NCBI GenBank assembly: GCA_964035545.1
Contig: OZ037765.1
Span: 22,009,504-22,073,503, forward strand
Length of the DNA: 64,000 nt
Reading direction: 5' to 3'
Origin: Bugula neritina
Taxonomy: Eukaryota > Animalia > Bryozoa
Both the position numbers and the translations under genes were made by a program. The notes beneath the pieces were generated by a model. The model saw only the letters and a program-made list of their open reading frames with translations, searched no databases and was not told the DNA's origin. Below, one piece after another: positions 36,403-64,000 of the stretch. The stretch's first letter is position 1. Every line of letters begins with the position of its first letter.

Positions 36403-39095
36403 CTATTCCTGGGCTGTTGCTGGCTTCTTTGCTGGACTTGCCTTTCGGGAGGAGACAATCTCTGGCAGCATCCCACTTTTACTAGATTCGGGGATGTCAC
36501 TAACAAACTGGAATCGCTGAAATGATGAGGAATAATTGGTTGATGTATCCATTGGTGGCTTGTTTGGATTTATCTCATACAGGGGACGAAAACTCTTGGG
36601 TGGAGGCTGGAATACTCCTACGAAAAGGAGAGCATAGCTGTCATGCAGCTGCAGCATATTTATAAAGCATCACTTTTATTTGATGTATACATAATATGGC
36701 AATCAAAATGCAGCTTCAACATTTCAATATATATTTTTGCAGCATGCTGTGAATTAGTAGTCAACTAACAAAAGAATATAGTAGGGCATATGTCACATCA
36801 AATAAATGAATGAATCCGGAATGTGGTTGGAATAGAATGACAAATAGATTATGCCATTCTATTTTCATTGGCTTCCCTAGTTGACATAAAAATTGTCTAC
36901 CTTTGAAACGTTCTTGAGATTCAGTTGAACTGTCCATTTTTACACCAGGCTTGATGAATGTAGGCAGTGGTGCATAAGACTTGGGTTTACTTTGAGTTTT
37001 GAAAGTGAAATCATCTTTATAATTAGTTGACATTTCAATATTTTCTTTTCCCAGCTTTAAAGTAGATACCCTTGGTTCATAGCTCACTCTGTCACCAACA
37101 ATGTTCCCATCAGGAAAGTCGTGCTATGAATTCACAAGTATTTCGAAATCATTTGGTGCACATGAACTAACAATCAATTGAAATAAAGTCATGCATTTTA
37201 CCAATGATAGCTCCAAAAGGATATCAGATAACATATTTTCATGTAAAAGCATACAGTCTTAGAATAAGATAAACAACTTTTTTTAGTGGCACACTTGATT
37301 GGGTTGTTAAATTTATCACACCAGTGTCTGCTAGTTTCATTATGATGGCAATTTTGTTGACAAAATTCTGGCCTATTTACTGCTTGAGGATTGATTTGAA
37401 TGAATCAATGTCACAATGCAGTCTAGTATTTAGGGACGTCTCTCATCAAGTGTAATGAATAATGCAGTAGTTCACAATGCTAAGATGATTGCATCACTTG
37501 GTGCCAGGTGTGTACTTGTGTGATGAACTCTGACAGTATGATGTCACTGTGCAACCAGTCTGGGAAAGGAAATGCCTGCATCACTTGTAAACTATCGCTT
37601 GTGTGGGATTAGTGGTTAGTAGGCATTCCCAAACCTACTAGAACTGCCCACTTATTTTGCACCTTATTAGCTAAAGTGGATGCGAAGACTGAAATACAGT
37701 TTTAGTGCATTTTGCAACGTCTAACTGTCAAAATGAGTTGTAAATTTACTTTTCTGGATTTTCCAGAACACCCATGAGAAATTTTCTGCCCTTGTACACT
37801 ATTCTGTATGAATAAACAATGCTTCATGTACATGTAGTGTTCTTATAATCACTAAAATGCTTTAATCTGAATAAGCAGTGAATCTACGGGCTTTTGCTGA
37901 ATTTGAGTAGAAACTTACTGCAAGATAACAAGGAGCTAAATTACTTGAATTCCACTTGTGATTCTAATATCATATTTATTCAATCAGATCATAAAAATTT
38001 ATGATAATTACCAATACTCTCTAATAGTAAGGGATTTGAAGAGAATGCAGTTGAATTCAGTAGACAGCAAAACTCAGCTTTTTCATTTAGGTGCAGTGAT
38101 GGAGAAATTTCAATAGCCTAAGTTCTTTAATTTTCTTGATAAATTTTGGCTTGTGGCGAATTGAAATTATCACAAAAATATCATAACTTCTTTTGCTACA
38201 TTTCTCATCTAGAACACTGGCTTTTCTCAATTTCACCATTACTGCACCCACCTCAGCTTTTGCTGGTCCAATATTTTTACTGTAAATTTACCCGCAACCC
38301 AGTGCTACAGTGTAGGTTTTAGGCTATAGTATGTACTCACTGAGGTTCTCAGGTTATGGACTACAAGCATACTTTTTATATAGCATATTGGCCTCTAGTT
38401 ATAACTAAACTTGACTGCTTAGACGAATTTTTTTCCACAAAACCCGAATGAGCCTTGCAAAATACAATTTATGCAAGACATGTGGCACATGCTTTGAATA
38501 TGACCTAATGAATGTTTTCACAATACGCCAGCATACCAGACAAATTCTCTATTAGTTTACAGGCTGTAAACAGACAGTTTCAATCAAAAAGAGAGTAGAA
38601 TTGGGTCAAGTTGCAACTCGTGATGCTACTTTACTTAGCCAACACATTAAAGCTTAGGTATGAGAACACATGTACCCACAGCAAGGGTCATATTTGATAG
38701 CATAATATTTCCATACATGCGTAGCAGATTCAGGCTCATTGCCAAATCATACATATATCTAAGAGAGGTTTTCGTGACAAGGTCAGTATTAAAAGGTTAG
38801 TAATTGGCCCCATGTCAAGGAGAGCTTCTCATGCATGTATTTCAGTACATTTCAGCTATACTGGGTAATACATTTTCTGTCTTTCAACCCACATTTTTTA
38901 AATAATTTAATGTGAAACTAATCTATATCTGCTTCACCATAGATTTATAGATTGTTTTATAGAATATGCTAGATAGTGTGAACATAGTGCTAATGTTTCT
39001 ATTACTGTAGAATACATATCTGACACCATTGGTATGGCTGCTCAATTAATTCACTTTTAATATAACTATTACTACTACTGCTACTACTACTACTG

Positions 39096-39139
<44 letters not shown>

Positions 39140-42100
39140 GATACTGCTACTACTACTGCTACTACTACTACTGCTACTACTGCTACTACTGCTACTACTG
39201 CTAGTACTGCTACTGCTGCTACTACTGCTGCTACTACTGCTACTACTGCTGCTGCTACTACTACTACTGCTGCTACTACTACTACTACTGCTGCTACTAC
39301 TACTGCTGCTACTGCTACTACTGCTACTACTGCTCCTACTACTAATGCTGCTGCTAATTCTGCATGACATTCATCAATGACACTACTTGACTTTGAAAGG
39401 TTAAAAGACTGAAGTTTATTTGCAGGTTGGAATAGAAAGTAAAGTTAACCACAACTTATTTTGAGGTGAACCTTAAACTTGTTAAAAACATATGGCAGAA
39501 TTTTACCACTGTTACTATCACTACTATAACTACTGTTACCACTGTTACTATTTCTACTATAACTACTGCTACCACTGTTACCATCACTACTATAACTACT
39601 GCTACCACTGTTACTATTTCTACTATAACTACTGCTACCACTGTTACTATCACCACTATAACTACTGCTACCACTGTTACTATTTCTACTATAACTACTG
39701 CTACCACTGTTGAAATGCTATTATCACTGCTACAATCACTAGCTATAGGAAAACACATAGTGGTTATAATTAAAACCATTAGTTACAATCAAAAACTCAA
39801 TTACAGTATCCAATTGTTGCTTAGGCCATCAAAACAAAATGGAAGTTATTTACTCTTGAATAAAAATATTTCATATGGAAAGATAACTTCTAATACATTA
39901 CAAAACCTATAAGCTCCATAGAGGTCTGTCTGCCATGTATACTATTATTCAATGAGATGTTTTACCAAATACTTAGATATAGTAGTCATATACAATGTAT
40001 CAATATATTATATATGTTATATAAAATAGTTTCAAATAAACAGAAAACAAAATGTTGTTCACCATGATAGGTTAGTAAATCGTGTTAACTTGGTGGCAAT
40101 ACCATTGTAGTATAATAACTGATTTAATCTTTATAAACTACTTTATGTTCTAAAAGGATATCATTTTATTACATCGAGTTATAATACAGCAGTAAACTAC
40201 AGCTCATAAAGAGACTGATTGAAATAGTTCAAAACCATTTGAAAGACTAGCTACGATTGAAAAGGCTACTACTGACAATTGTAGGCATTCAACAAGGTGA
40301 AACATATTAATTATTGATTCAATAGATTTTAGTAACTTTCTTAATTCATTGTTAGATATGAATTTTCTTTATAGCCTTACAGGCTTAAAATAATACCCAG
40401 TCTTTGTTAAGATATTAGACTGTTTTAGTAATATGGCCTATATATGTAGCTAACATTCTTTAGATCTGTAGCTATCAATCTTATTGCACACTGTAGTACT
40501 GTAAAATCTAATTACTGGAGTTTTAAATTTTGTGTTATAAACTCTCCCTTATAAAATCCACTCATTTTTACAAATAAAGAAGGACGAATGAGTGTTAACA
40601 TTAGATACCAGTAGCGATGCATGTAACATGGTGCAAGGAAATTTCTATTTCAAACTCCCGCAAAGTAGCTGGAGTGAGTTATTGAAGAGGTGAAATTATA
40701 GGCAATGTTTTCAATTTTAACAGAATAATTAAAATAAAATATTAAACAGGAAATTCATTTTCCTTATAGCAACAAATCAACCTTATAGTATAATAGAATA
40801 TTTACAATTACAGATTCAATCACCTTACTTGTATACAATGATTGCGAGATATAGCGCAACTATTAGTCTGGTCTAAGTCATACATGTATATTATTTTACA
40901 AGACAGTAGTTACTATAGTCTATTGATTTAGTAAGCTAATTTTAAAGAAGCATGCAATGCATGTGAACAGATTTCTACACTTCTTCTTGAGCTGATGTAA
41001 TAAATTTACCAACATCAAATAAGAATCGAAGCAATCTAACAAAATAATGTTTTGACTGCCAGAATTAATGCAAAAAAGGTGGGAAAATAAACAAATAATC
41101 AATTGGCCCAAATACCCACTACTTAAGGTTAAGTGAAATTCATGAGAATATTTAGAAAACTCACTCTGTATGTGCTCTCTGCGTTAGCCATTGGGGTTCC
41201 AGCTTTCTGGGCCTCCAACCAGTTATTCTGTGAATTCACTGTTGAATAAGGCAGTTTCTTTACATCCTTGTATGCTACAAAGTCCTTTTTATTTGTTGTT
41301 TCACAGCTAAACTTTGCCGAAGGTTTTCGATATTGGTAGGATGGGGCGAAACTAAATCAGACAGACAATTTAACTGAATAAGATAACTCATTAGTCATTT
41401 AACCAAAGAACACTGGCAAACAAGTTTAATTAAGCTTGCAAAATTTTCATAACTAGTACAAGAAAACACAATTTACACACACAAAGCACACAACAAGCTT
41501 GAAAATATTATACAATATCTTGGAACAAAAGCAACTAAATATGTAAATAATAAGACACATTTTATGTTGATAATGTGACCATTTATTGACATTTGATTCT
41601 AATCAGATTGGTGTTGATAGGTTCTATTGATTTGGCTATGAGCTATAGATTCTATACACACATGCCAATTATATTCTAACATAAAAATATAGTCCACTAC
41701 AATACAGGACCTTTGAATTAGTTACCTTTTCGTCTTAACAACAGCTCTTTGTACAAAATCTTCTGAATATCCACTGCTACCTTGAAATGTTCCACTCATA
41801 ATATTATTGTCTTTCAGCCTGTAAGCTGCAATTACATGTTATCAATGTGTCAACAGGGTTGACACTTATATTGTTGCTCTGTTAACAACAGCAAAGTAAA
41901 TACAACCAAATGATATTGATAGCAATATTAAAAAGAATTCAAGCTCTGATGAAGGTCTCCTGAATGCTTGAAGTATGTTTATATTATAGATTTGAACTAA
42001 CACTAGTTCACTGATTCTTAGTTCGCAGTTGAAACCAAGCTATTACTCCTAGTAATTATTTATATAGATGTTGAGAAGGTATATGTGTATTGTGTATATA

Positions 42101-47391: not shown

Positions 47392-48584
47392 CAGGGTTGG
47401 GGTCAATTACATGTGAATGTAATTAATTACAATTACAATTACATGAAGATTTGTCAATTACAATTACAATTATAATTACAGTTAAAAGATAATGTAATTA
47501 ATTACAATTACAATTACATGGTGATGTAATTAATTACAATTACAATTACTTTTGTTCTCACAAGGAATAACTAGAAGTTATACAATGTCACTTCTAGGGC
47601 CCAACTACCAGGGGCAATGTTGACAGTGGTGAACCTCCTTTGTTCCCAATAGTGACACTATAAGGTCACTCCATGCCAAATCAACCAAATTTTTAAGGGT
47701 CCCACACCTTTGCTTCTCAGATTTTGCTTATGTTTACACATGTCCGGTGTACTATTCGTGAATATTTCTGACATGACACAAAAACTTTTTGAGAAATGAC
47801 TACATTTGTGAAAAAAGGTTGGGAAAACTTTTGAGGAAAATTTGTGATTTCTACTTTTAGACCAACTTATAAATGTCTATATCTCAACCATTTTTTTTAG
47901 ACTGAGCCTTAAAAATTGATGTGGGAGATATTTAAAAAATTTTCAAAATTTACAAAAATTTACCCATATTCGATGGTTTAGCATATATGTACACAAATTG
48001 TTCTGTAGTATGTGTTGGTACTAGTGCAAGTTGATAGGCATTATTAAATCAAACAGCAAATTTTAAGAGCCTAGAAAAATGGTTGAGATATAGACATTTA
48101 TAAATTGCTCTAAAAGTAGAAGTCACCAATTTTCCTTAAAGTTTTTCCCAACCTTTGTCCACAAATGTAGTAATTTCTCAAAAAGTTTTCTGTCAGGCCA
48201 AAAATATTTAAGAAAAGTACTCAGGACATATGTAGGCCTATAATTTGGTGTAAATATGAATAAACTCTGAGACACAAAGGCACCGGCCATGTGGTGAGTT
48301 AGCATGGAATGACCCTATACTCGTATATTGACTTAATCTGAACTTGTTATTTAACAGTAGATATGGTAGGAAAAGAATGATTTTTTTAAGATTTAAAAGT
48401 TTGAAGTAATTGACATGTAATTATAAAGTAATTGTAAAATTCAATTACATTAGCAATGTAATTAATTACAATTACAATTACAATTACATTTTTATGCATC
48501 AATTACAAATTACATTCAATTACTTGAAAAAATGTAATTAATTACAACCAATTACAATTACAAATTACAATTACCCCAACCCTG
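47392..48584. mobile_element. Non-autonomous hAT-superfamily DNA transposon with subterminal (AATTAC)n arrays
   Basis: 12-bp TIR CAGGGTTGGGGT...ACCCCAACCCTG, with a perfect 8-bp TSD GTACACAG at 47384-47391 and 48585-48592. No ORF. Confidence 0.9.
47663..48315. mobile_element. Foldback MITE nested inside the hAT element
   Basis: Termini AGGTCACTCCATGCCAA and TTAGCATGGAATGACCC, flanked by TATA on both sides. Long internal inverted arms (47781-47900 versus 48071-48189). Confidence 0.8.
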
Positions 48585-48896: not shown

Positions 48897-51800
48897 ATGA
48901 TGAATTCCGTGAAAATCAATTACATGGCAGTGGCTGCCACTTTGACCGTGGTTATCATTTTTATGATGTCATTCTACCATCATCGATCACCAGTATGTAT
49001 GGTTTCTGTAAATAAATAAAAGTAATTATTTGCAGAATATATATGCATTATATATAAAAAGTAAAACTTTTTTCATCTTGCACATTATCAACTTACTAAT
49101 ACTGTTGCTTTGCAAATGATCTGCTTGTTTCGCTATAGTTGTTATAGTAAATTTTTCTATGTATTTTCTTTTATTTTCGGCGATTACGTTCATAAAACAA
49201 GTACATATTAATACTGTTGAACTGCATTTATTTTACTGCTAATGTGTTCCAGGTCTTGACTTTGTATATAGACTGCAGATTTTGATCAAATGTTTTGCTT
49301 TCTTATTGGCTACCCAGAAGATCACAATAGCTGCTTATCTATCATAATCTGCATGTTGCTCAATTAATGCTTGCAGACAGTAAACCTCAGAGAACTTTTA
49401 TCAGCTAGCATTGATCTGGCAGAAAAAGGGGGTCTAAAAACAGTAGAAGTAAAAAAGAAACACAAACTAAATGCCGAAAGTAAAGGCAAAACTAAGGAAG
49501 GTGCTGATGAGATGAAAACTGATGGTGACATGCAGTCACACCGAGCTATTATTGCAGGATTCCATAGAACATTCCCTAGTTTAGCATCCAGGGTTAGTAT
49601 CTTCAAGCACTAAAGATCATAGAAGTTTCATCAAAATTTAGATTTCGTTATAAATTTTTTGAGTTATGAAATCAAACAATGTTGGACTATCATTTATTTG
49701 TTTTAGTAATTGGTTCAATAGACAATTTTCAGAGGTCCCTGATATCCCCTTTATAATTAAGAGTTGTGTCCTCCCAAAGTGAATAGGTTGCACCTTTGTA
49801 TAAAGAGCAAACTCATTAAAAATTTAAAGTTTGGCTGCTACTTAAAATTCTAATTATGCTATAGAATTGTTATTTTAGGAGATAGATATTTTGGTATAAG
49901 CACACATATTAGCAGTTCAAAAATTTTTTTTAAAATATTTCATCATGGATAATTTTGACTAAAATAAACTTTAAAGCATTTTTGTGATTTTGGTTACTGA
50001 GCAATGCTGAAATGGCACTTCAGCATTGCTCAGCAACCAAAACCACAAACATGAGCTCAAGTCTATTTTGCTCAACAAATTTCTTTTGGGAGACCACAAC
50101 TCTTAATTGTAAGGGACCTCTGAAAAGGGTCTATTGATATGACATGTCGCATACTAGTATGATAAACCTTGTAGATTGTATCTGAAGAACACGATAAAAG
50201 GCATGCGTCTGAAGATGCAACAGATGCAAATATTCGCAGACCAGAGACTCAATTGTTGCCTAGTGAGTTTGTTAAAGTCAAGGATATTACTGTATGGGTT
50301 GACCCCCTTGATGCTACACAGGAATATACAGGTATTATACTTTATTAAATAACTTCTGATTTACCTATTTTTACTGTAATAAATTTTTTTGTAATGCATT
50401 GTTAGCGTTACATGAAACCTAATTTATTCTATATTTTGTTGTCTGATACTGTTAGAATGATGCTTTGCAGGAAATCAAGTTTAGACATTAGGTGTTTGTA
50501 ATAAGTGAATGGTATGTCTTTGGCCACTTGGCAATTTTTGTATTATTAGAGAATTTCAGATTTACTGGTGCTTATCAACATAATGTTTTGTACAAATTTC
50601 AAAAATAATTCTAAAATATAAAAAGAAAAAAAATGCCCACCCAAGATATAATTTAGATATCGCTTAATGTTACATGATGCATTCATACCACACCTTTGTT
50701 TTTTTATAACGTAGAGTTTATTTTTTTGGTACAAGTATGTTTATTCTACGTAACTACTGTAATTACGAAGCTTTTTATAAGAAATGCTCTGTGACAGTAA
50801 ATGTTTCATTGTGAAACATTGTGCTATAATTCTTAGTGTATCTTTTATTTACTGTAGAGGATTTGGACCAGTATGTGACAGTGATGATCTGTGTTGCAGT
50901 AAAGGGTAAACCTGTGATAGGAGTTGTTCATAGGACAGAGAAATCTGAGCAATATGATAAAGAAACTAGTGAGTAAATAAAAACCTCTTCTTTTTAAAAC
51001 AACCCAACTTAGTCTCAAAACCAGTGTATTACACACACAGCACTCTTGATTTGTTTTAAATAAAAAATTAGCAGTCATCAGCTTTCACTAAGTACAAAAA
51101 ATGATTTTTACTTAATCGTTCATTTAGAATGTATCTTGTTGCACTTCATGTGATTGCACAACAACATTTTCCTTCTAATTGGCTTTTTTTGTTGGCATAA
51201 TATATCAAAGTTTAACCACATCATTGTAATTTCTCAATGAATATAATGTTTGAGTTCTCATATACATACTACATTATGCAATTGTATTATATTGCAGTGT
51301 GGGCTTGGGTAGGTAATGGAATATCTAATAACTTGGGTGCTATCAAGGATATCACAAAAGCTCCTAAGGATCCTAAAATTATCATATCTAGGTCACATAA
51401 GGGGGATGGAGAAGAAATTGTCAAACAGGCATTTGGTGGTGGTGAGTTGTTCAAAAGATTAGATTATTTCTCCCACCCTTTGTTCAGCTCTTTTATTTAC
51501 CAGTTCATTTATATTCTTTCTCTACTTTTATCAAACAACCTTAAATTTTGCGCTTGCAAATTGTATTTGTATGAAAACTGCTATTAGTTGGTTCCAATAT
51601 ATGTTTACATGTTTTTTAAACTTTCAATTTGATTCTCATTAACTCATAGAGAAGAAAACTGTGCTGTTAGGTTGTTAATTGCATTTCACTCTGTTTCCTA
51701 GGTTGAATCTGTCGAATAAGCTAGGTTTAATATGGATTTTGTAAATTTTTGTGTGTAGGGAAAGTAATTTCTGCTGGTGGTGCAGGCTACAAAGCCATGG

Positions 51801-52045
51801 AGGTGATCAGAGGCAAAGCAGATGTATATGCTCATGTTACTCTTATTAAGAAATGGGATATTTGTGCCGGGAATGCTCTACTGAATGCTGTTGGTGGTAA
51901 AATGAAAACTCTGAAAAATGAGACTATCACTTATGACAAGGAAAGTGGTCCTCTTAATAAGAATGGACTCTTGGCTTCTATGGCTCATTTTAATTACTAT
52001 CTTGATAAACTGGGTCCACTATTTTCAGCTAAAATTAAAAGTTAG
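48897..52045 (+). CDS. BPNT2: Golgi-resident PAP 3'-phosphatase (IMPAD1/gPAPP), inositol monophosphatase family, 336 aa
   Basis: Exons 48897-48992, 49377-49592, 50175-50331, 50858-50968, 51298-51441 and 51759-52045 (1011 nt). N-terminal signal anchor; motifs [43 protein letters not shown] and IKKWDICAG. Confidence 0.93.
49715..50137. mobile_element. MITE in BPNT2 intron 2
   Basis: Imperfect ~55-bp TIRs (TCAATAGAC..TTTTCAGAGGTCCCT...AATTAAGAGTTGTG..CTCCCAAA and its inverse) plus an internal hairpin at ~49980-50049. Superfamily not assigned. Confidence 0.75.
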
Positions 52046-53723: not shown

Positions 53724-56700
53724 ATGGAAGAATATGATGGAAATGCTAAGCCTCGTGGTAAATGCAATTACTACATGTATACATGTTAAGCCTGATGCAA
53801 TAACTTCAGGGTTATTTAAATTATTACTTATACTTATAGTTATAGATATTACTTATTAATATTAGTATTACACTTTTTACAGCCAGTGTCACAATATGAA
53901 TATGAATATAAATATTGGTATTCATATTGATATTGAATACTTATACTGTAAAAGACTAAGTATTGACTACACAAGTTCAACACAACGACGAAATTGAAGA
54001 CATTTGTCGAACTTTTGACGGTTGAACATAATAATAAAGTTTAACGTTGTCAATTACTGTGTAGATTAAGGTTTAGTAAAACTAATTATCAACATGTATT
54101 TGTTCTGTCGGCTGTTTCGATTCTTTATTTTAAAATTAATGTTCAAATTGAGAAATTTTATCTTAAATTAATTTGATTGGTCTGTAAAATTTAAAGTTAA
54201 TCGTAAACCAATTTTGAATAGTTGATAACTATAAGTATAACTACTACTTTATTTACATTTAACGCCAAACTTAAGCTAAATGAATTTAATAATATTAAGA
54301 ATAATATCTGTACAACTAATCTTTAGAGTAAGACTTAGTTTATGCTTACCCTTAGTGATTGTAACCTACTGTAAGTATATTTAACTTTAGCTTCATGTAA
54401 ATAAAATAATTTTTATTATTATTTGTTGGTTGTGCCACAGCTTTTTGCTGATGTCCTCTCCTAACATTGATCTAGTTCCGCTGGGTCAGATAGGACTTTT
54501 CTCAAGGTGTGAGTTGATCTTAGTAAGGCTGTCTGTTAAATCAATAAATAGTAACATTTAGTATACAATCTTGTATGTAATTTCAAGGGCTTCAATTGAT
54601 ATCAGTACAGTTTTTGTGTATGTTTCCTAAAGATCGGTAAATTCTAATGCAAGCGCCTGATAATTTGCTACCTTTTGTTATTTTTTCTCTGGTACTCGCT
54701 AGGAATAGCGATATATTGAGTATCATTATTTCTGCGTTGCGCTTGCCAACTACTACAGTATCAGGCCTCATAGCTTTGATGATTTGGTTGGTGTGTATGT
54801 TGAAATCTTACAAGATCTTTATATTGTCACTTTCCATAATTTATTTCAAATGGTAGTCGTTTTTATTTCGTGCTTTTTTTCTGAAGTTTGTGGATTCCAC
54901 ACACAACTCTGAGTGATTTATCTCTTTTTATATTTGCCAGGTGCTATTTTTTGCATTCACTAAGTATATGCATCACAATTTTTTTCTTTGCGTTAATTAT
55001 CTGACACTTTTTGCTGCTTTGTTATTTCATTATGATCACCTTGTAAATCTTAGTAGGAGGCGCTTGATTCTCAGCAGCTAACAGTTCCTCTGTTTCCTTT
55101 TTTAGCCGACCAGATCATAACCAGTTTTAAAAATATGTTTTCATTGCTTATGCTTTTTCTATTTATTATTTCTTCCAATCGCTTTGTTTTTCTATAGTGC
55201 TACTTCCAAGTCGTTCAGTATTATGTCTGTATCTATGCCTGTTCTCTTTATTTAATCTGACAACCTTCAGTATCTACACCTTCCTTAATTGACACTGTAG
55301 TGATATGCTTACCTTGGTACTGGTGATATTAAACTTATTAGGTATAAGATTCTAATCCACCAGGTCAGTATGACTTTAGCTTCAAGTTTAAGTTTTAGTT
55401 TGTGAGTATTAGTATGAGTATTGTTATGATTTTCAGATCTAGGGTTGATGTGCTCTCCAGAGAGTCTATTTATTTGCTATAGAACTGCACCAGGATAAGT
55501 CGAGTGAACGAGTATATTTTACACACAATTATACATTATAAAAACGATACATTATATTCAAACAAGTTACACATCTAATCTATTTCACACTCTAGCTTCG
55601 ACTGAGTTAGCAGCGGGAAACTACAATTGCTGCTAACTATCAACTACGCTAATTGGCTATCCATTGTTCCGGGTCAATTACGCGACCCTACATGTTGTGC
55701 TGCTGGTAGTTCCACGAACCACCACACCGCCCCCACCAGCAGAAAGCCATCTTTCTGATATATATATTAAAAAAACATTCATTAGTAACCGCATACATCA
55801 GTGGACAAAAATAACACATAATATACAGGAAGAGACATAATAATAGACAGAGTCATCATAACGATCCGTTGCATACAATTGGCCAGCTGTAGATAGACGA
55901 GGAATACTAGCTAGCTGTGGTGTTAGACAGGGGATAACCTGTTAAGCAGTTAAACATTTGCATGACATCTTGGTTCCTCCCAAGATGTGAAGTTGCGGAG
56001 TATTCTGGGTAGCCAACTAGAGTCCTTGTTGGGCACGCCGGTGCTTGGCTTGGCATGTACGCAGTTTCCGTTTCATACGGCATACGGATCCCTTTAGCTG
56101 GAAGAGTCCTGTTGTAGTGTTAAGTAGATCTGGTGCCAGCTGGGTGAATTCTTCTTGTAATCGCAGGAGGCGTTCTTCTACTGTGGCTAGGCGTACTGGG
56201 TCTGGGGACGGTGTCCGTCTGCGGCGCAAGGGTGGACTGGGGGACCTGGTTCGTCTCTTCGTCGGGGTAGGGGAGATCTCTCCTTCTTCTGGATATGTAA
56301 TTTCCTCGGGGGTGTATGTAATTTGAGGGCGGTCAGACACCAACGGGGATTGTTGGCGGGCGTTGTCTAACACACGTTGGAACCCCGAGGACAGAACGGC
56401 TAACAGCATGGCCCTCTTCACCAGAGGTCGTATAAGTGTGAGGAACTCCGGGTATAGCTTAGCGTCGACCACGTAGTTTTCTCCAGGGAAACAGCCCGTC
56501 GCTCGGTGTCTGGTGACGGGGTAGGGATACACATCATTGTACCCGCAGGGGCAGAATGTTAGTAGGAGATGAGCATTGACGTGTAGTTTAAGGGAGCGGT
56601 GAGAGGCGCAATCTTCACCACAGATCTGGCATCTCGTCCGTCCTCTGGACCCCCAGGCCGTTTCTATTTCTTCTTCTGTTTGTGGAGACACCCACCGCCA

Positions 56701-59700
56701 ACGGCGGCGTAGTGGCTCAGGCCGGTCACCACTAGCATACTCCTCCGGATATGGAGCGGGAAGTGTTCTATCCCGTACCCTGGTTGTAGCGGGTCGAGTG
56801 TATTCTGAAAAAGTTTCAACAGTGTTAATACAGTACACTGCCGTGTTGTCAGCTTGAATAGCTTGGCAACTCCTAATTCAGTTACCTCGTAGAGATTTAT
56901 GGTAGTGAATAGTCAGATAGAACACGTATTGCAATGAGATTATAAAAATCTCTAAGTCAAACTGAGTTCTTACTACGGTATTCCACTAACCTATCTCCAG
57001 CTCGATTGACTCAGTGAGTCAGAGCTGAGCGATGCAATCTAGTTTCGTATTAAGATATAGTTAACTCACCCCACGATCTGTTGTCGTAAGACATACTGAA
57101 TGTGTGAAATGGTTTGAACTACTGCTTAGAAACACGTCTACTCCTGACTGCATCAGCGTATGAAAAGATCGAGCAACGTGGTTGGGGTGCGTGATTAAGA
57201 CTTTGTGCACCCGGCGGATGAATTTTGTTTCTATTTCCGCCGATACAAAAGTTGATATTTCCTTGGTGTTGACAACTCCCACATTTGCTCGATACTTTTC
57301 TCGTACGGTTTTCCCTAGACTTTCATACACGCCGCTTTTAACGCAGTCGCATATGAAGTCCTTCAAGTATGCGGGGGGTTGCCTCGTACGCTGTCCCCTT
57401 TCTAGGGGGGGTGACACGCTTGCCGGTTCGTTAGTAGGGGCCTCTAATGGCGTCTCTACTTCACCGTTAGCGGTCACCTCTTCTTGTTCTCCGGATGGAG
57501 CCCCTCCCTCCGTGGGGGTTTGCACTTCCGGAACCGGTTCGGTTTCTGGAAGTGATGGAATTAGACTTGGCGGTGGCGGACACGCTTCTGTTGACAAAAG
57601 CTGCCGCTCCTCTCTCACCAAGTTTTCTTCCCGCGGTATGACCACTTCGTATTCAGGTCCATGCCGCCGTCGCCCGCGCGTTGTTGTCTGCCTCCTGGGC
57701 TCTAACAACGGGGGGGGGGCTTCTCCCACTCCGTCAGGGCTAGCCCAATACGGTTTCAAGCGAGACTCATTCTGGATAGACACCTGTCCTGAGCGCTCAA
57801 TCTTGTACGTATGATTGGGCATAGCCTCGACGACCACGTAGGGGCCTACGAACTTAGGCTTCAGCTTATCAGCCTGTTCGCGACGCCTACGGTAATTGAC
57901 CATCCACACCTTATCTCCCATTTGATAGAGAGGTGGTTCATCGGAATCTTCGTGCCGCACCTTCCACTGCTGTTGGCGCAGTATATCGTGTGCGGCCTTC
58001 ATCCGTTCCACTAGTTCACTGGCATACTCGTGAACTGAGTTGTCTTGCTCTGGAACGTGATAGGTGAGATGGTCAGGGACACGAGTCTCTCTCCCGAGCA
58101 TCAAGAGGTTTGGGGTCTCACCAGTACTGGTGTGTGGGGTGCTACGGTATGCACGCATGACTTGCGGCAACACCGTATCCCATTCCTCTTGACCTCGTCC
58201 AAGGAGGAGACTCCGGAGTGCATCACCTAGCATCCGGTTGTTGCGCTCCACCACCCCGTTACCTTGAGGGTGGTAGGGGGTGGTCCTGCTCTGATTTACT
58301 CCCCAGAGGCGGCAAAGGTCGCTCATCAGTTGAGACTGGAATTGAGCGCCTTGATCAGAGTGTATCTGTTCGGGGAGCCCAAAATAACAGAATACATGTT
58401 GGTCTAGTGCCCTGGCCACTGTTGGGGCTGATGCATCTGGGATAGCCAGAGCATCCGCCCACCTAGTAAAGTGGTCGGTTAGTACTAGGATCCAATTATT
58501 GCCTCTGGGGGTCAGGGGCATGGGTCCGACCAGGTCTACAGCGACTACTTGCCAGGGCCTACCAGCATATAGCCTCCGCCGTCCTGCTTCACCAGGGGGG
58601 CGGCTATGCTTACTGGCCTGGCAGATCTCACACTGTTTGACTCTGAGCCGGACGTCACGCTCCATTTGTGGCCAATACCACCGGAGTCGTAATTTGGACA
58701 TCACTCTCTTGACCCCTGCGTGGGCCTGTTTGTGAGTATCCCAAATCAACTCGCGGCGGATGGCTGTGGGGCAGACTACCCTCTTCCTTTCCGGGTGTCT
58801 GCCGCTGGCAGCTAGAGAGATGGTTAGCAACCCATCCTGCCCGATCCGCAGCGAGTCCCAACGCTGACAGTATAGCCGGAACTCGGCACATCCCTGTCGT
58901 ATGCGTTCCTCGCTGGGTCGTCGCCCTTCCCTTTTGGCCCGGTATACGTCTGCCACGACTCCAGGCAGCTCTTCTTAGAGCTTCTTCAGCTCTCGAACAT
59001 TACCGGCCAGTACAGGGTTGGCGCGGAGGTTTTGTACATCCTCCGGGGACTCATCAACTCTTTGCCTGAGTTGACCTTGGTCCCAGTCAAACGGTGCTCC
59101 GTGGTGAGCCAGCGTCTCCAACTCGCATCGCGGGGGACCTCCATCCCTCCTCTCGATGTTGAGACACTGTTTGCAACCTCCGTCAGGTCGGCGACTCAAC
59201 CCATCCGCATTGCTGTGTCTCTTGCCCGGTCGATGTTCGATCCGGTATGAGAATTCAGCTAGGATTTCGAGCCACCGGGCGACCTGACTAGAGGGCTCTG
59301 CTCTCCTGCACAACCAGATCAGCGAGGCATGATCCGTACGCAGCCGGAACTTCCTGCCATATAGGTATGGTCTGAAGTGCTTCACTGACTTGATTACTGC
59401 CAGCAGCTCCTTGCGGGTAGTGCAGTAATTTCGTTCAGCGGGTGAGAGAGACTTGCTGTAGTAGGCTACTACTACCTCTCGGCCTTCCTGCACTTGTGAC
59501 AGCACAGCGCCAACATTTTGGTCACTGGCGTCCGTGTCTAGGATGTACTCCAGAGTGGGGTCTGGGTAGGCCAAGATGGGCGCCGTTAGTAGGCAGCCCT
59601 TGAGGCGGTCGAACGCTTCCTGTTCGACTGGGGTCCACTGCCACGTCACTCCCTTTGCGGTGAGCCGGTTTAACGGCTGGGCTATGCCCGCAAAGTCTGG

Positions 59701-62700
59701 TATGTATTGCCTGTAATACCCTACCAGCCCCAAGAAAGCCCGGAGTCCGGTCAAGTCTTGGGGGGTGACCCAGTCTTCTACTGCCCGTACCTTTTCGGGA
59801 TCCGTTGCCACGCCGTTTCGACCGACAACGTGCCCCAGGTACTTGACCTCCGGCTGCAATAGAGCGCACTTGGAAGGTTTGAGTTTAAGACCGGCACCTC
59901 GGAGTCTCTCGAAAACCTCCTGCAGACGACTGACATGTGTCTCGAAGTCTGGAGAGATTACGATGACATCATCGAGGTAGACCAGCAGTGTCTTCCAATG
60001 GAGTCCGCTAAGGACTTGTTCCATCAGCCTCTGGAAGGTGGCTGAGGCGGAGGTTAACCCGAAGGGCAGCACCTTCCACTTCCACAAACCGTCCCGTGTG
60101 ATAAACGCCGCTTTCTCCTGGGCGTCGGGACTCAGAGGAACTTGCCAATAGCCGCTTAGCAAGTCTAACGTACTGAAGTACTTGCTGCCGGCTAGGGCGT
60201 CCAATGACTCGTCAATACGAGGTAGAGGATAAGCGTCCTGTATGGTTACGCTATTGAGCTTGCGGTAATCCACACAGAACCGCCAACTGCCGTCTTTCTT
60301 CCGGACCAGTACGACTGGCGAGCTCCACGCGCTATGGGCGGGCTCTATCAGTCCCCGGTCCAGAAGATCCCGTACTTGTCGGCTAACTTCCTTCTCTTTT
60401 TCCGGCCCCAGCCTGCGTGTGGGCTGCCGGACAGGGACTGTCCCTGCAGTCAGCGGTATTTCGTGCCTGACAACTCCAGTCAGCCCCACGTCATGATCTC
60501 CGCTACTGAACACATCACCGTAGTCGCGTAGCAACTTCGCCATGGCTTGGCGTTCCTTGTTGCTCGCGCAGCCGCCACTGGCTGTTCCGTATAACTCCCG
60601 GAGATGTGTTGGGACTGCCCCTCGTCCCTGAATAGGGCACTGAGGGAGTGCCTCTGTCGCATCACCTAGCGACGGGCCTACGTCTCCCTCCTGAACAGAG
60701 TGAAAACGGCCCAGCATCGACCCAGCCGGGAGCTTGATAGGCTCGGTAAAGGGGTTGACGCACTGCACTAAGATCTCCCCTTGCTCAGTCAACTGATTCA
60801 GACTGCTGGCAAGTTGGATCTTTTCGTGCGCGCCTTCAACCACCCCGAGTCCAGAGATCCGGCTATTATTCACCCTGCAGTGAATGGTAGCCCGGGAGCG
60901 GCCTGGTATGATACGGTTGCGTACCACTTGCACACCTCCCACTAAAGGGCGGCCGAACTTGTCGACGCAGGCGAGTTCCCGCCCGGACATCATCATTGCA
61001 GATCTGCTAAAATCTATGTGACATCCGTGCCGTTTAAGGAACGGCATCCCGAGGATAGCATCCTCCTTGAGCTGACTGACGATGAACGTCTCTTGGATCG
61101 TTTGATCACGGACTCGTCCCGTCAGCTCAATTATACCATAGAAGGGAAGGCACGACCCGTCAGCTAGGGTGCCGTATTCCCCTTCGTATGATTCCATTTC
61201 GCCCCTGACCCTAGCACTGAGGGTGTCGAAGAGTTGGCGGCTTAAGAGGTTTGTGGTACAGCCCGAATCAATGAGGAAAGTAACAGCTTTGCCTTCCAGT
61301 TTACCGGGCAAGAAATAGCTGTTCCCATGGGGCTGCACCTGAACTCTCTCTCTTCAGGCCCTACTCTCGCAGGGAGTACCTCCCTCGCTTTGGGTCGCGA
61401 AGGAGGTCTCTTGGGGCGGTGGTAGGTAGGCCTCGGGGGTGCCGAGGTTAGATCCTCGGCTACCTTTGTGGGCTCCCATCCAGATTCTTGGACTCGTAGC
61501 CCTGTGAATCTGTTGTGAAGGGGCATAGAAAAGGCAGCCGCGGGGCGAAGCCCCTTGCTGGTCCGTCGTGGCTGTTGCCACTGTTGGTTGCCAGTACGCG
61601 ATACCCGTCTGGGTGACCTGCGTTTCTTCTTCCCTGGGGGTTTCATCGTCGGCCCGCAAGAGGTGGGAACATCTGCGGGCCGCGGTAGTTTAACCCCTGA
61701 TTTAGGAAGGGACAGTATCGGCGGAAATGCCCTTGATTTCCGCACTCCCAGCAAAAACTGACTGTTTCTCCCTGTGGCGGCGCCGATGGCCGCATGGGCT
61801 CAGGGGCGGTACTCACTGGGTTTTGTGGTGTCAGTGTTGCTATCAGCTTGGCTAGCATGTCTGTCAGTTGAGTGACTTTCGATGCCGTCGCCAACTGGGA
61901 CACGGCAGCCGCGGCGGGGGTTTCCTCCCCTTGTCCCGCGGCCGTGTCTGCGCGGTCTATCTCCACTTGACGGGAGCTTCCGCGACTTTTATGCATTTGA
62001 TTAGCTAGGAGGTAAGCTTCCCCCTCAGTCAGAGCATCTTCAACGGTGGTGACTCCCCTAGCTAGAAACTGGTGGTGGAGACCCAGATCGTCGACAGATG
62101 CTATGAAAGCGTCGAGGGTATACCTCTCGCGGTTGACTGGGGGCAAGTCGCTGTACGCGATCTGTGCCAGCTTCATGACCGCGGCGGCATGCTCCCGCAG
62201 CGGGGTGCGGGGATCACGCCGCAACCTCTGCAATCGGGCCCTGGCATCTGTAGCAGAGAGGCCGAAGCGGGCCCGCAGAGAAGCAAAGATATTATCAATG
62301 TCTACGCCCAGCCCATAAGGCTTGGCTTTGTCCATCAATGCCATTCTAAGCTTCAGCAAGGCCACCCTAGGGGGCCACTGGGCGACGTCCATTACGTCAC
62401 TAAACTCTTGGATAAATTGTTCCACCTCCTCTTCACCCGTGAAGGTGGGCGCCTTTAACCGGTAGCGTTCCTTAGTTAGTTCTCGCGGAACCCTTCGCTC
62501 TTCTACTACATGGTTAACAGGCATTGTCTCTACAGCATTGTCTCTACGCTCACCTTCTATTGCCGGTGGTTGAGTTCCAGCATTTTCAGTCTCCATCTTG
62601 GATGCACTATCCCACTGCTGCCACCACTGTTATGATTTTCAGATCTAGGGTTGATGTGCTCTCCAGAGAGTCTATTTATTTGCTATAGAACTGCACCAGG

Positions 62701-64000
62701 ATAAGTCGAGTGAACGAGTATATTTTACACACAATTATACATTATAAAAACGATACATTATATTCAAACAAGTTACACATCTAATCTATTTCACACTCTA
62801 GCTTCGACTGAGTTAGCAGCGGGAAACTACAATTGCTGCTAACTATCAACTACGCTAATTGGCTATCCATTGTTCCGGGTCAATTACGCGACCCTACATG
62901 TTGTGCTGCTGGTAGTTCCACGAACCACCACAGTATCACTGTGTTCGTAGCCCACAACCTTGGTCCCAGTCTCTTGTCAGTCTCTAAGTATAACGTCAGT
63001 TAATATTTGAGTTATTAGTTAGTAGGTGTATGCTCAAGTACTAGTAAAGGATTTGTTTCAATTAGTATAAGTATCTCTTATGAATTTGTTCACTCTTTAT
63101 CAATCTCAATCTTCTTTCGTTCTCTCCATGCTCATTTCCTATTTCTTTTTTATTAATTTACAAATAAAGAACAGATAACTCCTTGGTATACACTTCAGAC
63201 ACTATTTGTCTGCTGCCTTCCTTCCTGCCAATACACAGCCTGTTTAAATCACCATCATTATCATTAGTATCATTATTATAATTATATACTAAAGCTAATA
63301 TATTTTGCAGCATTTTCATTTTTTGAAAAGTGTTGAATCCTTGCATAAATTACGTAATTTATAATAAGGCCAGCCAGAAATTTTGTTTTTATTGTCAGTG
63401 CTCTGTATCTTTAAAACTGTCTTAATATTAAAGTTTATTTATGGGGTTTTTAAGAGCCAAGAAAGAAGCTGAAGAAGAAAAAGTCACCAGCAAAAGAAGA
63501 ACTTTTACCTGATCCGCAAGAAAACATTATTGGTTAGTTCAACTAGTAATTTATAGCAGTTACTTAGAAGTGATGACTATAAGCTCATCAAAAGGTTCTA
63601 CTGTGCAAATTTGCAAGTTTTTTCAGTTTTAACAATAGATAACTTTACATGCATGCATACTGTTAATTTATTAAGCTGCTAACCTTTACAGCTATAAAAG
63701 TATTGCACTTTTGTCAAATAAGCTATTGTGAAGAAATATAAAAAGTTAAATATAGCAATATGCGTTGACACTCATGTTTTGCTTTCTGCGGAGATATTAC
63801 CAATATTACATCAACTTGTCATAATTTTTTTAAAGCATAATATTGTTACACTTGTTTTTGCTTGAATTATAATACTGTACGTATTTGGCAATCACTACTA
63901 ACCATTATAATATATTATGTGTTTTACAGCAGCCAACAGCATAAAAAAATCTACAAAGGCAACTTTTGATTTGTATTTAGAGCAAGCTCAAGCAAATATT
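53724..64000 (+). CDS. Probable 5' exons of an unidentified host gene continuing beyond the window
   Basis: Candidate exons 53724-53757 (ATG in ACAATGG context), 63455-63532 and 63930-64000 join in phase 1 with GT/AG ends. They give an open frame MEEYDGNAKPREPRKKLKKKKSPAKEELLPDPQENIIAANSIKKSTKATFDLYLEQAQANI. No homology recognised. Confidence 0.45.
54410..55330 (-). mobile_element. Decayed 3' end of an RLE-type non-LTR retrotransposon (R4/Dong-like)
   Basis: Broken frames give LKKETEELLAAENQA, VMHILSECKK, MESDNIKIL*DFNIHTNQIIKAMRPDTVVV, IAIP and YQALALEF. These resemble the CCHC and PD-(D/E)xK restriction-like endonuclease region. The element ends in a short (TAA)n tail near 54412; its 5' limit is approximate. 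Confidence 0.7.
55422..55726 (-). repeat. 3' LTR
   Basis: No difference from 62628-62932 found by eye. AATAAA on the minus strand at 55469-55474. Confidence 0.97.
55727..55737 (-). promoter_or_regulatory. Polypurine tract
   Basis: GGTGGGGGCGG on the minus strand directly abuts the 3' LTR. Confidence 0.8.
56017..56804 (-). CDS. Retrotransposon ORF3 main exon: zinc-finger / basic SP-rich / coiled-coil protein, not env-like
   Basis: The open frame contains C-x2-C-x12-H-x3-H and C-x-C-x12-H-x4-C (56631-56491), KRRTRSPSPPLRRRRTPSP and a 43-residue heptad repeat (56190-56062). There is no ATG upstream of the fingers; the acceptor ACTTTTTCAG| ends at 56805. Confidence 0.8.
57061..58974 (-). CDS. 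pol, integrase portion (same frame as RT, separated by one TAA)
   Basis: HHCC (HKQAH...CEIC), DDE (VAVDLVGP, HSDQGAQF, VERNNR), GPY/F module (PKFVGPY) and RTRQPPAYLKDF tail motif. Confidence 0.95.
   Translation of the reverse strand, partial: EELPGVVADVYRAKREGRRPSEERIRQGCAEFRLYCQRWDSLRIGQDGLLTISLAASGRHPERKRVVCPTAIRRELIWDTHKQAHAGVKRVMSKLRLRWYWPQMERDVRLRVKQCEICQASKHSRPPGEAGRRRLYAGRPWQVVAVDLVGPMPLTPRGNNWILVLTDHFTRWADALAIPDASAPTVARALDQHVFCYFGLPEQIHSDQGAQFQSQLMSDLCRLWGVNQSRTTPYHPQGNGVVERNNRMLGDALRSLLLGRGQEEWDTVLPQVMRAYRSTPHTSTGETPNLLMLGRETRVPDHLTYHVPEQDNSVHEYASELVERMKAAHDILRQQQWKVRHEDSDEPPLYQMGDKVWMVNYRRRREQADKLKPKFVGPYVVVEAMPNHTYKIERSGQVSIQNESRLKPYWASPDGVGEAPPPLLEPRRQTTTRGRRRHGPEYEVVIPREENLVREERQLLSTEACPPPPSLIPSLPETEPVPEVQTPTEGGAPSGEQEEVTANGEVETPLEAPTNEPASVSPPLERGQRTRQPPAYLKDFICDCVKSGVYESLGKTVREKYRANVGVVNTKEISTFVSAEIETKFIRRVHKVLITHPNHVARSFHTLMQSGVDVFLSSSSNHFTHSVCLTTTDRGVS
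58975..61353 (-). CDS. pol: aspartic protease, reverse transcriptase, RNase H
   Basis: Protease FLIDSG; RT SPVVLVRKKDGSWRFCVDYRKLN, LPFGL and YLDD; RNase H DTDAS, ELLAV, RTDH and NADGLSR. Confidence 0.97.
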   Translation of the reverse strand, partial: RERVQVQPHGNSYFLPGKLEGKAVTFLIDSGCTTNLLSRQLFDTLSARVRGEMESYEGEYGTLADGSCLPFYGIIELTGRVRDQTIQETFIVSQLKEDAILGMPFLKRHGCHIDFSRSAMMMSGRELACVDKFGRPLVGGVQVVRNRIIPGRSRATIHCRVNNSRISGLGVVEGAHEKIQLASSLNQLTEQGEILVQCVNPFTEPIKLPAGSMLGRFHSVQEGDVGPSLGDATEALPQCPIQGRGAVPTHLRELYGTASGGCASNKERQAMAKLLRDYGDVFSSGDHDVGLTGVVRHEIPLTAGTVPVRQPTRRLGPEKEKEVSRQVRDLLDRGLIEPAHSAWSSPVVLVRKKDGSWRFCVDYRKLNSVTIQDAYPLPRIDESLDALAGSKYFSTLDLLSGYWQVPLSPDAQEKAAFITRDGLWKWKVLPFGLTSASATFQRLMEQVLSGLHWKTLLVYLDDVIVISPDFETHVSRLQEVFERLRGAGLKLKPSKCALLQPEVKYLGHVVGRNGVATDPEKVRAVEDWVTPQDLTGLRAFLGLVGYYRQYIPDFAGIAQPLNRLTAKGVTWQWTPVEQEAFDRLKGCLLTAPILAYPDPTLEYILDTDASDQNVGAVLSQVQEGREVVVAYYSKSLSPAERNYCTTRKELLAVIKSVKHFRPYLYGRKFRLRTDHASLIWLCRRAEPSSQVARWLEILAEFSYRIEHRPGKRHSNADGLSRRPDGGCKQCLNIERRDGGPPRCELETLAHHGAPFDWDQGQLRQRVDESPEDVQNLRANPVLAGNVRELKKL
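61354..61688 (-). CDS. Gag-Pol transframe linker (-1 frame relative to gag; part of ORF 61242-61754)
   Basis: Reached by a -1 shift at GTTAAAC. Basic, Pro-rich sequence containing PLHNRFTGL. It would join the protease frame if one GA unit were removed at 61344-61353. Confidence 0.6.
61643..62596 (-). CDS. gag, 317 aa
   Basis: ATG 13 nt after the PBS; capsid-like PTFTGEEEVEQFIQEF; zinc knuckle CWECGNQGHFRRYC. Confidence 0.93.
   Translation of the reverse strand: METENAGTQPPAIEGERRDNAVETMPVNHVVEERRVPRELTKERYRLKAPTFTGEEEVEQFIQEFSDVMDVAQWPPRVALLKLRMALMDKAKPYGLGVDIDNIFASLRARFGLSATDARARLQRLRRDPRTPLREHAAAVMKLAQIAYSDLPPVNRERYTLDAFIASVDDLGLHHQFLARGVTTVEDALTEGEAYLLANQMHKSRGSSRQVEIDRADTAAGQGEETPAAAAVSQLATASKVTQLTDMLAKLIATLTPQNPVSTAPEPMRPSAPPQGETVSFCWECGNQGHFRRYCPFLNQGLNYRGPQMFPPLAGRR
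62609..62626 (-). promoter_or_regulatory. Primer-binding site, tRNA-Leu
   Basis: TGGTGGCAGCAGTGGGAT begins 1 nt inside the 5' LTR boundary. It is complementary, with one mismatch, to the 3' end ATCCCACCGCTGCCA-CCA of animal tRNA-Leu(AAG/TAG). Confidence 0.85.
62628..62932 (-). repeat. 5' LTR
   Basis: 305 bp, TG...CA ends, matching 55422-55726. Confidence 0.97.

Follow-up and report, generated by a model that had tools for sequence, protein, structure and literature searches.

Regulatory genes are a hallmark of complex retroviruses, in which Rev, Rex, Rem, Rec and the foamy-virus Tas are small nuclear regulators made from spliced 3' exons that feed back on RNA export or transcription. None of these regulators is known to carry the double-finger domain described below. 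Here we analyze ORF3, an open reading frame (ORF) of a 7511-bp Ty3/Gypsy element bounded by 305-bp long terminal repeats (LTRs) that are 100% identical. The element lies on the minus strand of a 64,000-nucleotide stretch of Bugula neritina contig OZ037765.1 (hereafter the window, to which all coordinates refer). ORF3 shows no sequence or fold match to the retroviral proteins named above; its product is probably a nuclear nucleic-acid-binding regulator of the element, judging from its predicted domains.

In the open-access literature searched, the sole tested regulator of a Gypsy element is CERV of Cer1, a Ty3/Gypsy element of C. elegans. The source describes CERV as a nuclear regulator whose spliced mRNA shares the Gag start and which is required for the export of unspliced RNA (PMC10309623). 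Like ORF3, it is a Gypsy accessory protein with a cysteine finger, a leucine zipper and a candidate nuclear localization signal. CERV is, however, described as a protein of 517 amino acids (aa) encoded by five exons, with H, M and G-protein-like domains, a C4-type loop and no homology outside nematodes (PMC10309623), whereas the product of ORF3 would comprise about 276 aa from one 3' exon after integrase, with C2H2 and C2HC fingers and a terminal coil. The two are thus set apart by description.

Other ORFs are known from the same position. The ORF3s of bdelloid rotifers (GDSL, DEDDy, TM and CC; PMC5408684) resemble the Bugula ORF3 in being family-specific and located after pol; they are described as typically expressed from spliced messages, as is predicted for ORF3, and some contain coiled coils. 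They are, however, enzymes or membrane proteins, and the word "zinc" is absent from the main text of that paper; no Pfam match to GDSL or DEDDy was found for ORF3 or 85 members of its family. Additional ORFs of the plant and fungal elements Grande, RIRE2, Retand and Boty are reported as antisense, the sense ones being env-like with transmembrane (TM) domains (PMC7264820). The F-type and gB-type env genes of errantiviruses (PMC13524379) likewise follow pol and share the layout of a predicted donor close to the beginning of gag that is joined to an acceptor beyond integrase; unlike them, ORF3 has no signal peptide, fusion peptide or TM anchor, is far shorter and contains predicted zinc ligands. 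An earlier reading of the locus, made from the sequence only, held that a third ORF at this position is usually env. Non-env third ORFs are less exceptional than this implied, as PMC5408684, PMC7264820 and PMC10309623 indicate, and a non-env ORF after pol is in itself already known from rotifers, plants and fungi. ORF3 is an accessory gene of this kind with an uncatalogued domain. No description of an ORF3 combining C2H2/C2HC fingers with a coiled coil was found in the open-access literature searched; Repbase, Dfam, GyDB, subscription journals and supplements lay outside this search and could hold one. A zinc-finger ORF is not mentioned in the available text of PMC6338049 and PMC6431247.

ORF3 comprises the following parts:

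56017..56877, minus strand: ORF3, 286 codons stop to stop, with the stop codon at 56017-56019 and codons 25-286 as the predicted coding exon
56338..56727, minus strand: conserved double zinc-finger domain (aa 51-180), about 130 residues, predicted local distance difference test score (pLDDT) 90-98
56569..56631, minus strand: finger 1, C2H2 (aa 83-103), with a basic recognition helix across the family
56491..56553, minus strand: finger 2, C-x-C...H...C (aa 109-129), from alignment and model
56203..56265, minus strand: Arg/Ser/Pro patch, PTKRRTRSPSPPLRRRRTPSP (aa 205-225), limited to the ORF3 subfamily
56023..56196, minus strand: coiled-coil helix (aa 228-285); its end is a basic tail conserved in the family, with K/R at 269-271, 273, 278 and 280

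The position between integrase (Pfam rve) and the polypurine tract (PPT) with the 3' LTR agrees with the sequence-only reading. The intact ORF of 273 codons that it reported is indeed open, with 273 codons from the GTG at 56838 and 286 from stop to stop, but this GTG is an unlikely start. Sense frames of at least 262 codons did not appear in any of 2000 shuffles of the 3' region of the element, the longest being 193. Both fingers are present as claimed, C83-x2-C86-x12-H99-x3-H103 and C109-x-C111-x12-H124-x4-C129. The six-heptad coil is likewise found, with L230, L237, F244, L251, L258, V265 and L272 at position a and V233, L240, L247, T254, L261 and M268 at position d. The Arg/Ser/Pro patch exists at aa 205-225, but does not hold as a family feature: only 3 of 43 linkers of the near family carry one, and therefore the SR-like or splicing hint drawn from it falls.

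The position of ORF3 raises the question of an envelope-like or particle protein for cell-to-cell spread, the coil of which would form a fusion-type trimer. The env slot, an env-like splice layout, a core rich in Leu at positions a and d, and the R-x-K/R-R motifs at residues 218 and 267 fit such a protein. The earlier conclusion that ORF3 is not env nevertheless stands. There is no TM anchor, the best 19-residue Kyte-Doolittle mean being 1.47 in ORF3 and only 7 of 147 relatives reaching 1.8, and no signal peptide is visible by hydropathy (no dedicated predictor was used), since ORF3 and the 14 predicted Gag codons ahead of it lack a hydrophobic leader. The Cys and His residues are spaced as zinc ligands, the C-terminus is a basic coil, and no env features and no env Pfam family were detected in the query or, for the latter, in the 85 members. 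The bryozoan env genes described in PMC13524379 are of the gB type with gag-env-pol order. An envelope function is therefore very improbable.

By sequence and structural model, ORF3 defines an uncatalogued double zinc-finger domain family, in which a C-terminal coil usually follows the domain. A word search gave 55 proteins with 44-97% identity, and a full scan extended the relatives to 105 cluster representatives, the most distant of them about 26% identical. When 85 proteins were aligned, the ligands of finger 1 proved to be retained in most rows having the column (C83 in 77/81, C86 in 81/83, H99 in 78/84 and H103 in 81/85), as are C109 (85/85), C111 (84/85) and H124 (80/83) of finger 2. The last ligand, C129, is kept in 62 of 82 rows, and C or H occurs nearby in 71 of 79. 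W62, V137 and D138 are likewise conserved, and the domain ligands can be recognized down to about 20-30% identity. AlphaFold2 with this alignment yielded pLDDT of 90-98 over residues 51-180 and one helix at 228-285. In the model, finger 1 consists of strands and the helix 93-104 in a beta-beta-alpha arrangement, with the C-x2-C-x12-H-x3-H pattern conserved. Among 92 proteins with tails of at least 70 residues, 71 have a coil after the domain (46/48 near and 25/44 far relatives), versus 120 of 1840 shuffled tails. The coil tail K-R-R-L-R-A-R-Q-A-R-H-R is conserved at 78-100% per position, while near-family linkers (n = 43) contain 24% Pro and are net acidic in 26 of 43.

The absence of a described family, noted earlier, is consistent with Pfam, which has no family for ORF3 and gives only sub-threshold C2H2 matches: ORF3 scores 13.2 bits against PF00096 (gathering threshold 25.2), and 12 of 85 members match at E <= 0.05. 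What the sequence-profile and fold searches retrieved was isolated C2H2 fingers or coils of a generic kind, and the Atlas leads are all under 0.9. Finger 1 shares the beta-beta-alpha pattern and a profile match with classical C2H2 fingers (PF00096; SALL3, HIC2 and BCL11A structures). Unlike these, ORF3 has no TGEKP-type linker, its finger 2 has a C-x-C knuckle, and both fingers are located inside a larger helical domain.

Selection on ORF3 is evident among sibling copies of the element. In the DNA run X2, 442 contigs cover 30 of 30 bins of 55960-56960, with summed depths mostly of 20,000-60,000 versus 122 for the insertion-site joint, summed contig depth not being a copy number. The 38 listed of 52 substitution sites in ORF3 comprise 27 synonymous and 11 non-synonymous changes and no stops, with a non-synonymous to synonymous ratio (pN/pS) of 0.15-0.21 (p <= 1.4e-6). 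Read in the two other minus-strand frames, the same sites give synonymous to non-synonymous counts of 5:31 (2 stops) and 3:34 (1 stop). For pol and integrase the counts are 18:7 over 25 X2 rows (stop site excluded), so that the pN/pS of ORF3 is like that of pol. The only length difference listed at a share of at least 3% falls outside ORF3. If the 14 unlisted sites were all non-synonymous, pN/pS would rise to 0.44 (p 0.002), which tempers the estimate. The sibling copies thus show neither the disruption nor the neutral drift that would speak against a gene; pN/pS is about 0.2. Across the 85 aligned proteins, seven ligands are kept in 93-100% of rows. It is almost certain that ORF3 is a genuine accessory gene under selection. 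That it stays open here although pol is broken, as noted before, is by itself weak evidence of function, given the identical LTRs and the young age of the insertion.

The genomic context of relatives was read only from read-through in gene calls, in 85 relatives with at least 30 residues ahead of the domain. An integrase tail precedes the domain in P0066 (39% identical; E 2e-7), and weak integrase-tail matches were obtained for P0048 and P0133 (E 0.002-0.003) against a shuffled background of 1.2 at E < 0.01 and 0.1 at E < 0.001. The upstream parts of P0018 and P0019 correspond to the spacer between integrase and ORF3, each better than 500/500 shuffles, and less clearly so in P0041 and P0029 (11/500 and 43/500 shuffles as good). 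In four relatives an integrase tail or spacer lies upstream, as far as read-through of gene calls can tell, in partial support of the expectation that relatives lie between Gypsy integrase and the PPT. The layout beside integrase or spacer is supported by sequence matches down to 39% identity. The read-through of P0066 ends in F-F-L-F-T-E just ahead of the conserved part, as a translated pyrimidine tract followed by CAG would.

ORF3 has no AUG ahead of its fingers, its first Met being residue 157, downstream of both. Two predicted splice sites could supply a start:

62548..62556, minus strand: predicted splice donor AAG/GTGAGC, phase 1, with the intron starting at 62553, 43 nt downstream of the ATG of gag
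56804..56812, minus strand: predicted splice acceptor TTTTTCAG, phase 1, with the exon starting at 56804 in ORF3 codon 25

A spliced RNA would link gag codons 1-14 to codon 25 of ORF3 (donor 62553, acceptor 56804), and the predicted product would consist of 14 Gag residues and 262 residues of ORF3, 276 in all. By a simple consensus score the donor ranks first of the 437 GT sites of the element. The acceptor is the most T-rich of 25 between 57300 and 56600, with a branch-point-like TTAAC upstream, and 21 of 23 aligned rows reaching it read [S/L]-[D/E/G], as a retained YAG would. Met is absent ahead of the fingers in this copy and in P0001, P0002 and P0041. X2 sites at codons 42, 44 and 48 are synonymous and therefore fit translation well upstream of Met157. 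Expression of ORF3 via the 62553-56804 splice is thus likely, although three points speak against it. The sole RNA run gave one 219-nt contig within ORF3 and none across the acceptor junction, donor and acceptor would agree in phase by chance in one case out of three, and in most relatives an in-frame Met precedes the fingers, so that these proteins could be made without the splice.

In the favored reading, the product would be an oligomeric zinc-finger protein of the nucleus that sustains transcription of the element by binding to its DNA. The coil may mediate oligomerization, the basic tail may mediate nuclear import, DNA may be the ligand of the fingers, and the acidic, proline-rich linker may provide activation or anti-silencing. 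Three features place a role in DNA binding and transcription first, namely the C2H2 finger, the acidic Pro-rich linker and the absence of classical export signals. Finger 1 matches by profile the DNA-binding C2H2 fingers of SALL3, HIC2 and ZBTB17 (E 5e-6 to 3e-5), and its recognition helix carries R/K at +2 and +5 in 80% of the family. Bryozoan gene models that contain the domain twice together with a coil are built like transcription factors, which was also counted for a DNA role. The choice of a DNA-binding activator or anti-silencer over a function in RNA export is nevertheless tentative, and we hold it with rather less than even confidence.

Several observations weigh against it. Position +6 of the finger 1 helix is mostly V/L/I (78%) and not base-contacting, the basic residues of finger 2 are lost in the near family, and the C2H2 profile matches are generic and cover one finger only. 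A Foldseek search against BFVD and PDB gave nothing at E <= 0.001, a result that does not exclude a fusogen fold. In the LTR, no recurring motif is prominent enough to suggest a binding site, and the only tested precedent in a Gypsy element, CERV, acts on RNA export and not on transcription, as its source describes (PMC10309623).

That precedent suggests a Rev/CERV-like alternative, in which the protein made from spliced RNA binds the unspliced genomic RNA through its fingers or Arg-rich tail, multimerizes by the coil and exports this RNA, switching on Gag and Pol. It comes close behind because the genomic RNA has strong splice sites, the spacer is moderately structured and CERV offers a precedent. 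A genomic RNA with a strong donor and acceptor must escape splicing, and the described design of CERV follows the same logic, with a spliced mRNA sharing the Gag start, a cysteine finger, a leucine zipper, nuclear location and a requirement in export (PMC10309623). The spacer, which lies within the predicted intron, folds better than 196 of 200 shuffles (z -2.4; 2 regions folded). In composition, the conserved basic tail next to the coil is that of an arginine-rich motif beside an oligomerization helix, and we take it to resemble the arginine-rich RNA-binding motifs. However, ORF3 contains no nuclear export signal pattern of class 1a/1b/1d/2, only one of class 1c inside finger 1 and four of class 3 in amphipathic helices, as expected of any coil. 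The Arg/Ser/Pro patch is limited to the 3/43 linkers, the 3' untranslated region is unstructured (z -0.8), and no Rfam family match was found. Env-bearing elements, as is generally known, splice alike without such a protein, so that the sites could be no more than a legacy of the env slot. An export function is somewhat less likely than the transcriptional one.

The hydrophobic +6 position would also suit an adaptor that directs integration or protects the element from small-RNA silencing, with the domain bound to a host chromatin protein or DNA motif and the coil to Gag or integrase. The fingers sit in one compact domain with conserved W62, V137-D138 and helices, which may offer a protein-binding surface, and the integrase has no Pfam chromodomain match. 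On the other hand, finger 1 has a strongly basic recognition helix throughout the family, and interaction evidence of any kind is absent; an adaptor is improbable.

The named relatives of ORF3 are gene models of Bugula neritina and Watersipora subatra. Four bryozoan gene models contain the domain (Watersipora subatra XP_067940964.1 and XP_067944745.1, Bugula neritina KAF6037488.1 and KAF6040923.1), and two of them hold it twice. Two copies of the domain were observed in P0063/P0154 (an isoform pair, Watersipora subatra model), P0184 (Bugula neritina model) and P0096, and a terminal coil also occurs in P0063/P0154 and P0096. These two-copy proteins are candidates for domesticated or ancestral host genes. 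A midpoint-rooted FastTree phylogeny of 87 domain sequences over 118 columns, in which 12 of the first 55 hits represent the near family and near-identical cluster members are excluded, unites the integrase-linked sequences in one clade (support 0.985), nested in a group with a Bugula model (0.97), and gives no direction of exchange.

The presence of the domain in these gene models, with the tree leaving capture versus domestication unsettled, could also mean that ORF3 is a captured host zinc-finger exon, a passenger of little use to the element. The pN/pS of about 0.2 among copies, equal to that of pol, and the absence of listed ORF3 indels at a share of at least 3% contradict this, as does the retention of the intronless ORF beside integrase or spacer in relatives of 39-49% identity. 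The passenger explanation is largely refuted, with only a slight chance left to it, while an ancient host origin may or may not apply. Since the domain is lacking in Pfam as a family and present in host gene models, element and host may have exchanged it. It is conceivable, if unlikely, that an old, undescribed double-finger family serves as the regulatory gene of marine-invertebrate Gypsy elements, with Tas- or Rev-like feedback via the env splice and copies exchanged with hosts, the two-domain genes of bryozoans being examples.

If ORF3 acts as a regulator, it would be a second selected one in the env slot, unrelated to CERV, and LTR retrotransposons would appear to fill this slot repeatedly with nuclear control proteins. 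It would also offer a small, well-modelled protein for studying the export of unspliced RNA or continued transcription in a silencing host.

The remaining parts of the element are as follows:

62628..62932, minus strand: 5' LTR, 305 bp, TG...CA, same sequence as the 3' LTR
62609..62626, minus strand: primer-binding site, directly after the 5' LTR
61643..62596, minus strand: gag, first in-frame ATG at 62596, with a C-terminal CCHC knuckle
61650..61694, minus strand: end of gag, GTTAAAC slippery heptamer (61694-61688) and hairpin of -25.6 kcal/mol, where a -1 frameshift from gag to pol is predicted
58978..61353, minus strand: pol (protease, reverse transcriptase, RNase H), from Pfam and open frames
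57061..58974, minus strand: integrase, with H2C2 zinc domain, rve core and SH3-like C-terminus
56805..57060, minus strand: spacer between integrase and ORF3, with branch-point-like TTAAC, a T-rich tract ending in CAG, moderately structured RNA (z -2.4) and an AP-1-like pair
55727..55737, minus strand: PPT, abutting the 3' LTR
55422..55726, minus strand: 3' LTR, 305 bp, identical to the 5' LTR
55418-55421 and 62933-62936: target-site duplication GTAT, 4 bp, flanking the element

Direct TG...CA LTRs, a primer-binding site, a PPT, a target-site duplication and the Pfam order Asp_protease_2, RVT_1, RT_RNaseH and rve after gag identify a Ty3/Gypsy LTR retrotransposon. The primer-binding site is presumably tRNA-Leu-like. 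The CCHC knuckle of gag is under the cut-off (Pfam zf-CCHC, E 0.15), and the GTTAAAC heptamer with its hairpin is likely a -1 frameshift signal, as judged by its motifs. In this copy pol is interrupted twice, near 61340-61355 by a frame break and at 58975-58977 by a stop, and sibling contigs differ from it at both sites. A contig of depth 122 bridges the flanks of the element, from 55331 (an approximate left end) to 62932. Identical LTRs despite the doubly broken pol, many sites unlike most of the sibling depth and this bridging contig suggest that a defective template was copied in trans and inserted recently, the insertion being polymorphic.

Near the integrase end, a one-base length difference from about two-thirds of X2 depth was observed at 57312, and the integrase stop of sibling copies probably comes before 57061. 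Two AP-1-like heptamers, inverted back to back, lie within the spacer hairpin at 57007-57021 and account for 2 of the 10 such sites in the window; the pair is a possible internal enhancer or RNA element. Outside the element, an exon of a host gene of the inositol-monophosphatase family is located at 51731-52045 on the plus strand (Pfam Inositol_P, E 4e-13), about 3.4 kb from the insertion. Tandem arrays of 9-bp and 23-bp units and two inverted-repeat structures, similar to miniature inverted-repeat transposable elements, occur at 39010-39654, 11843-12302, 47781-48189 and 49748-50115.

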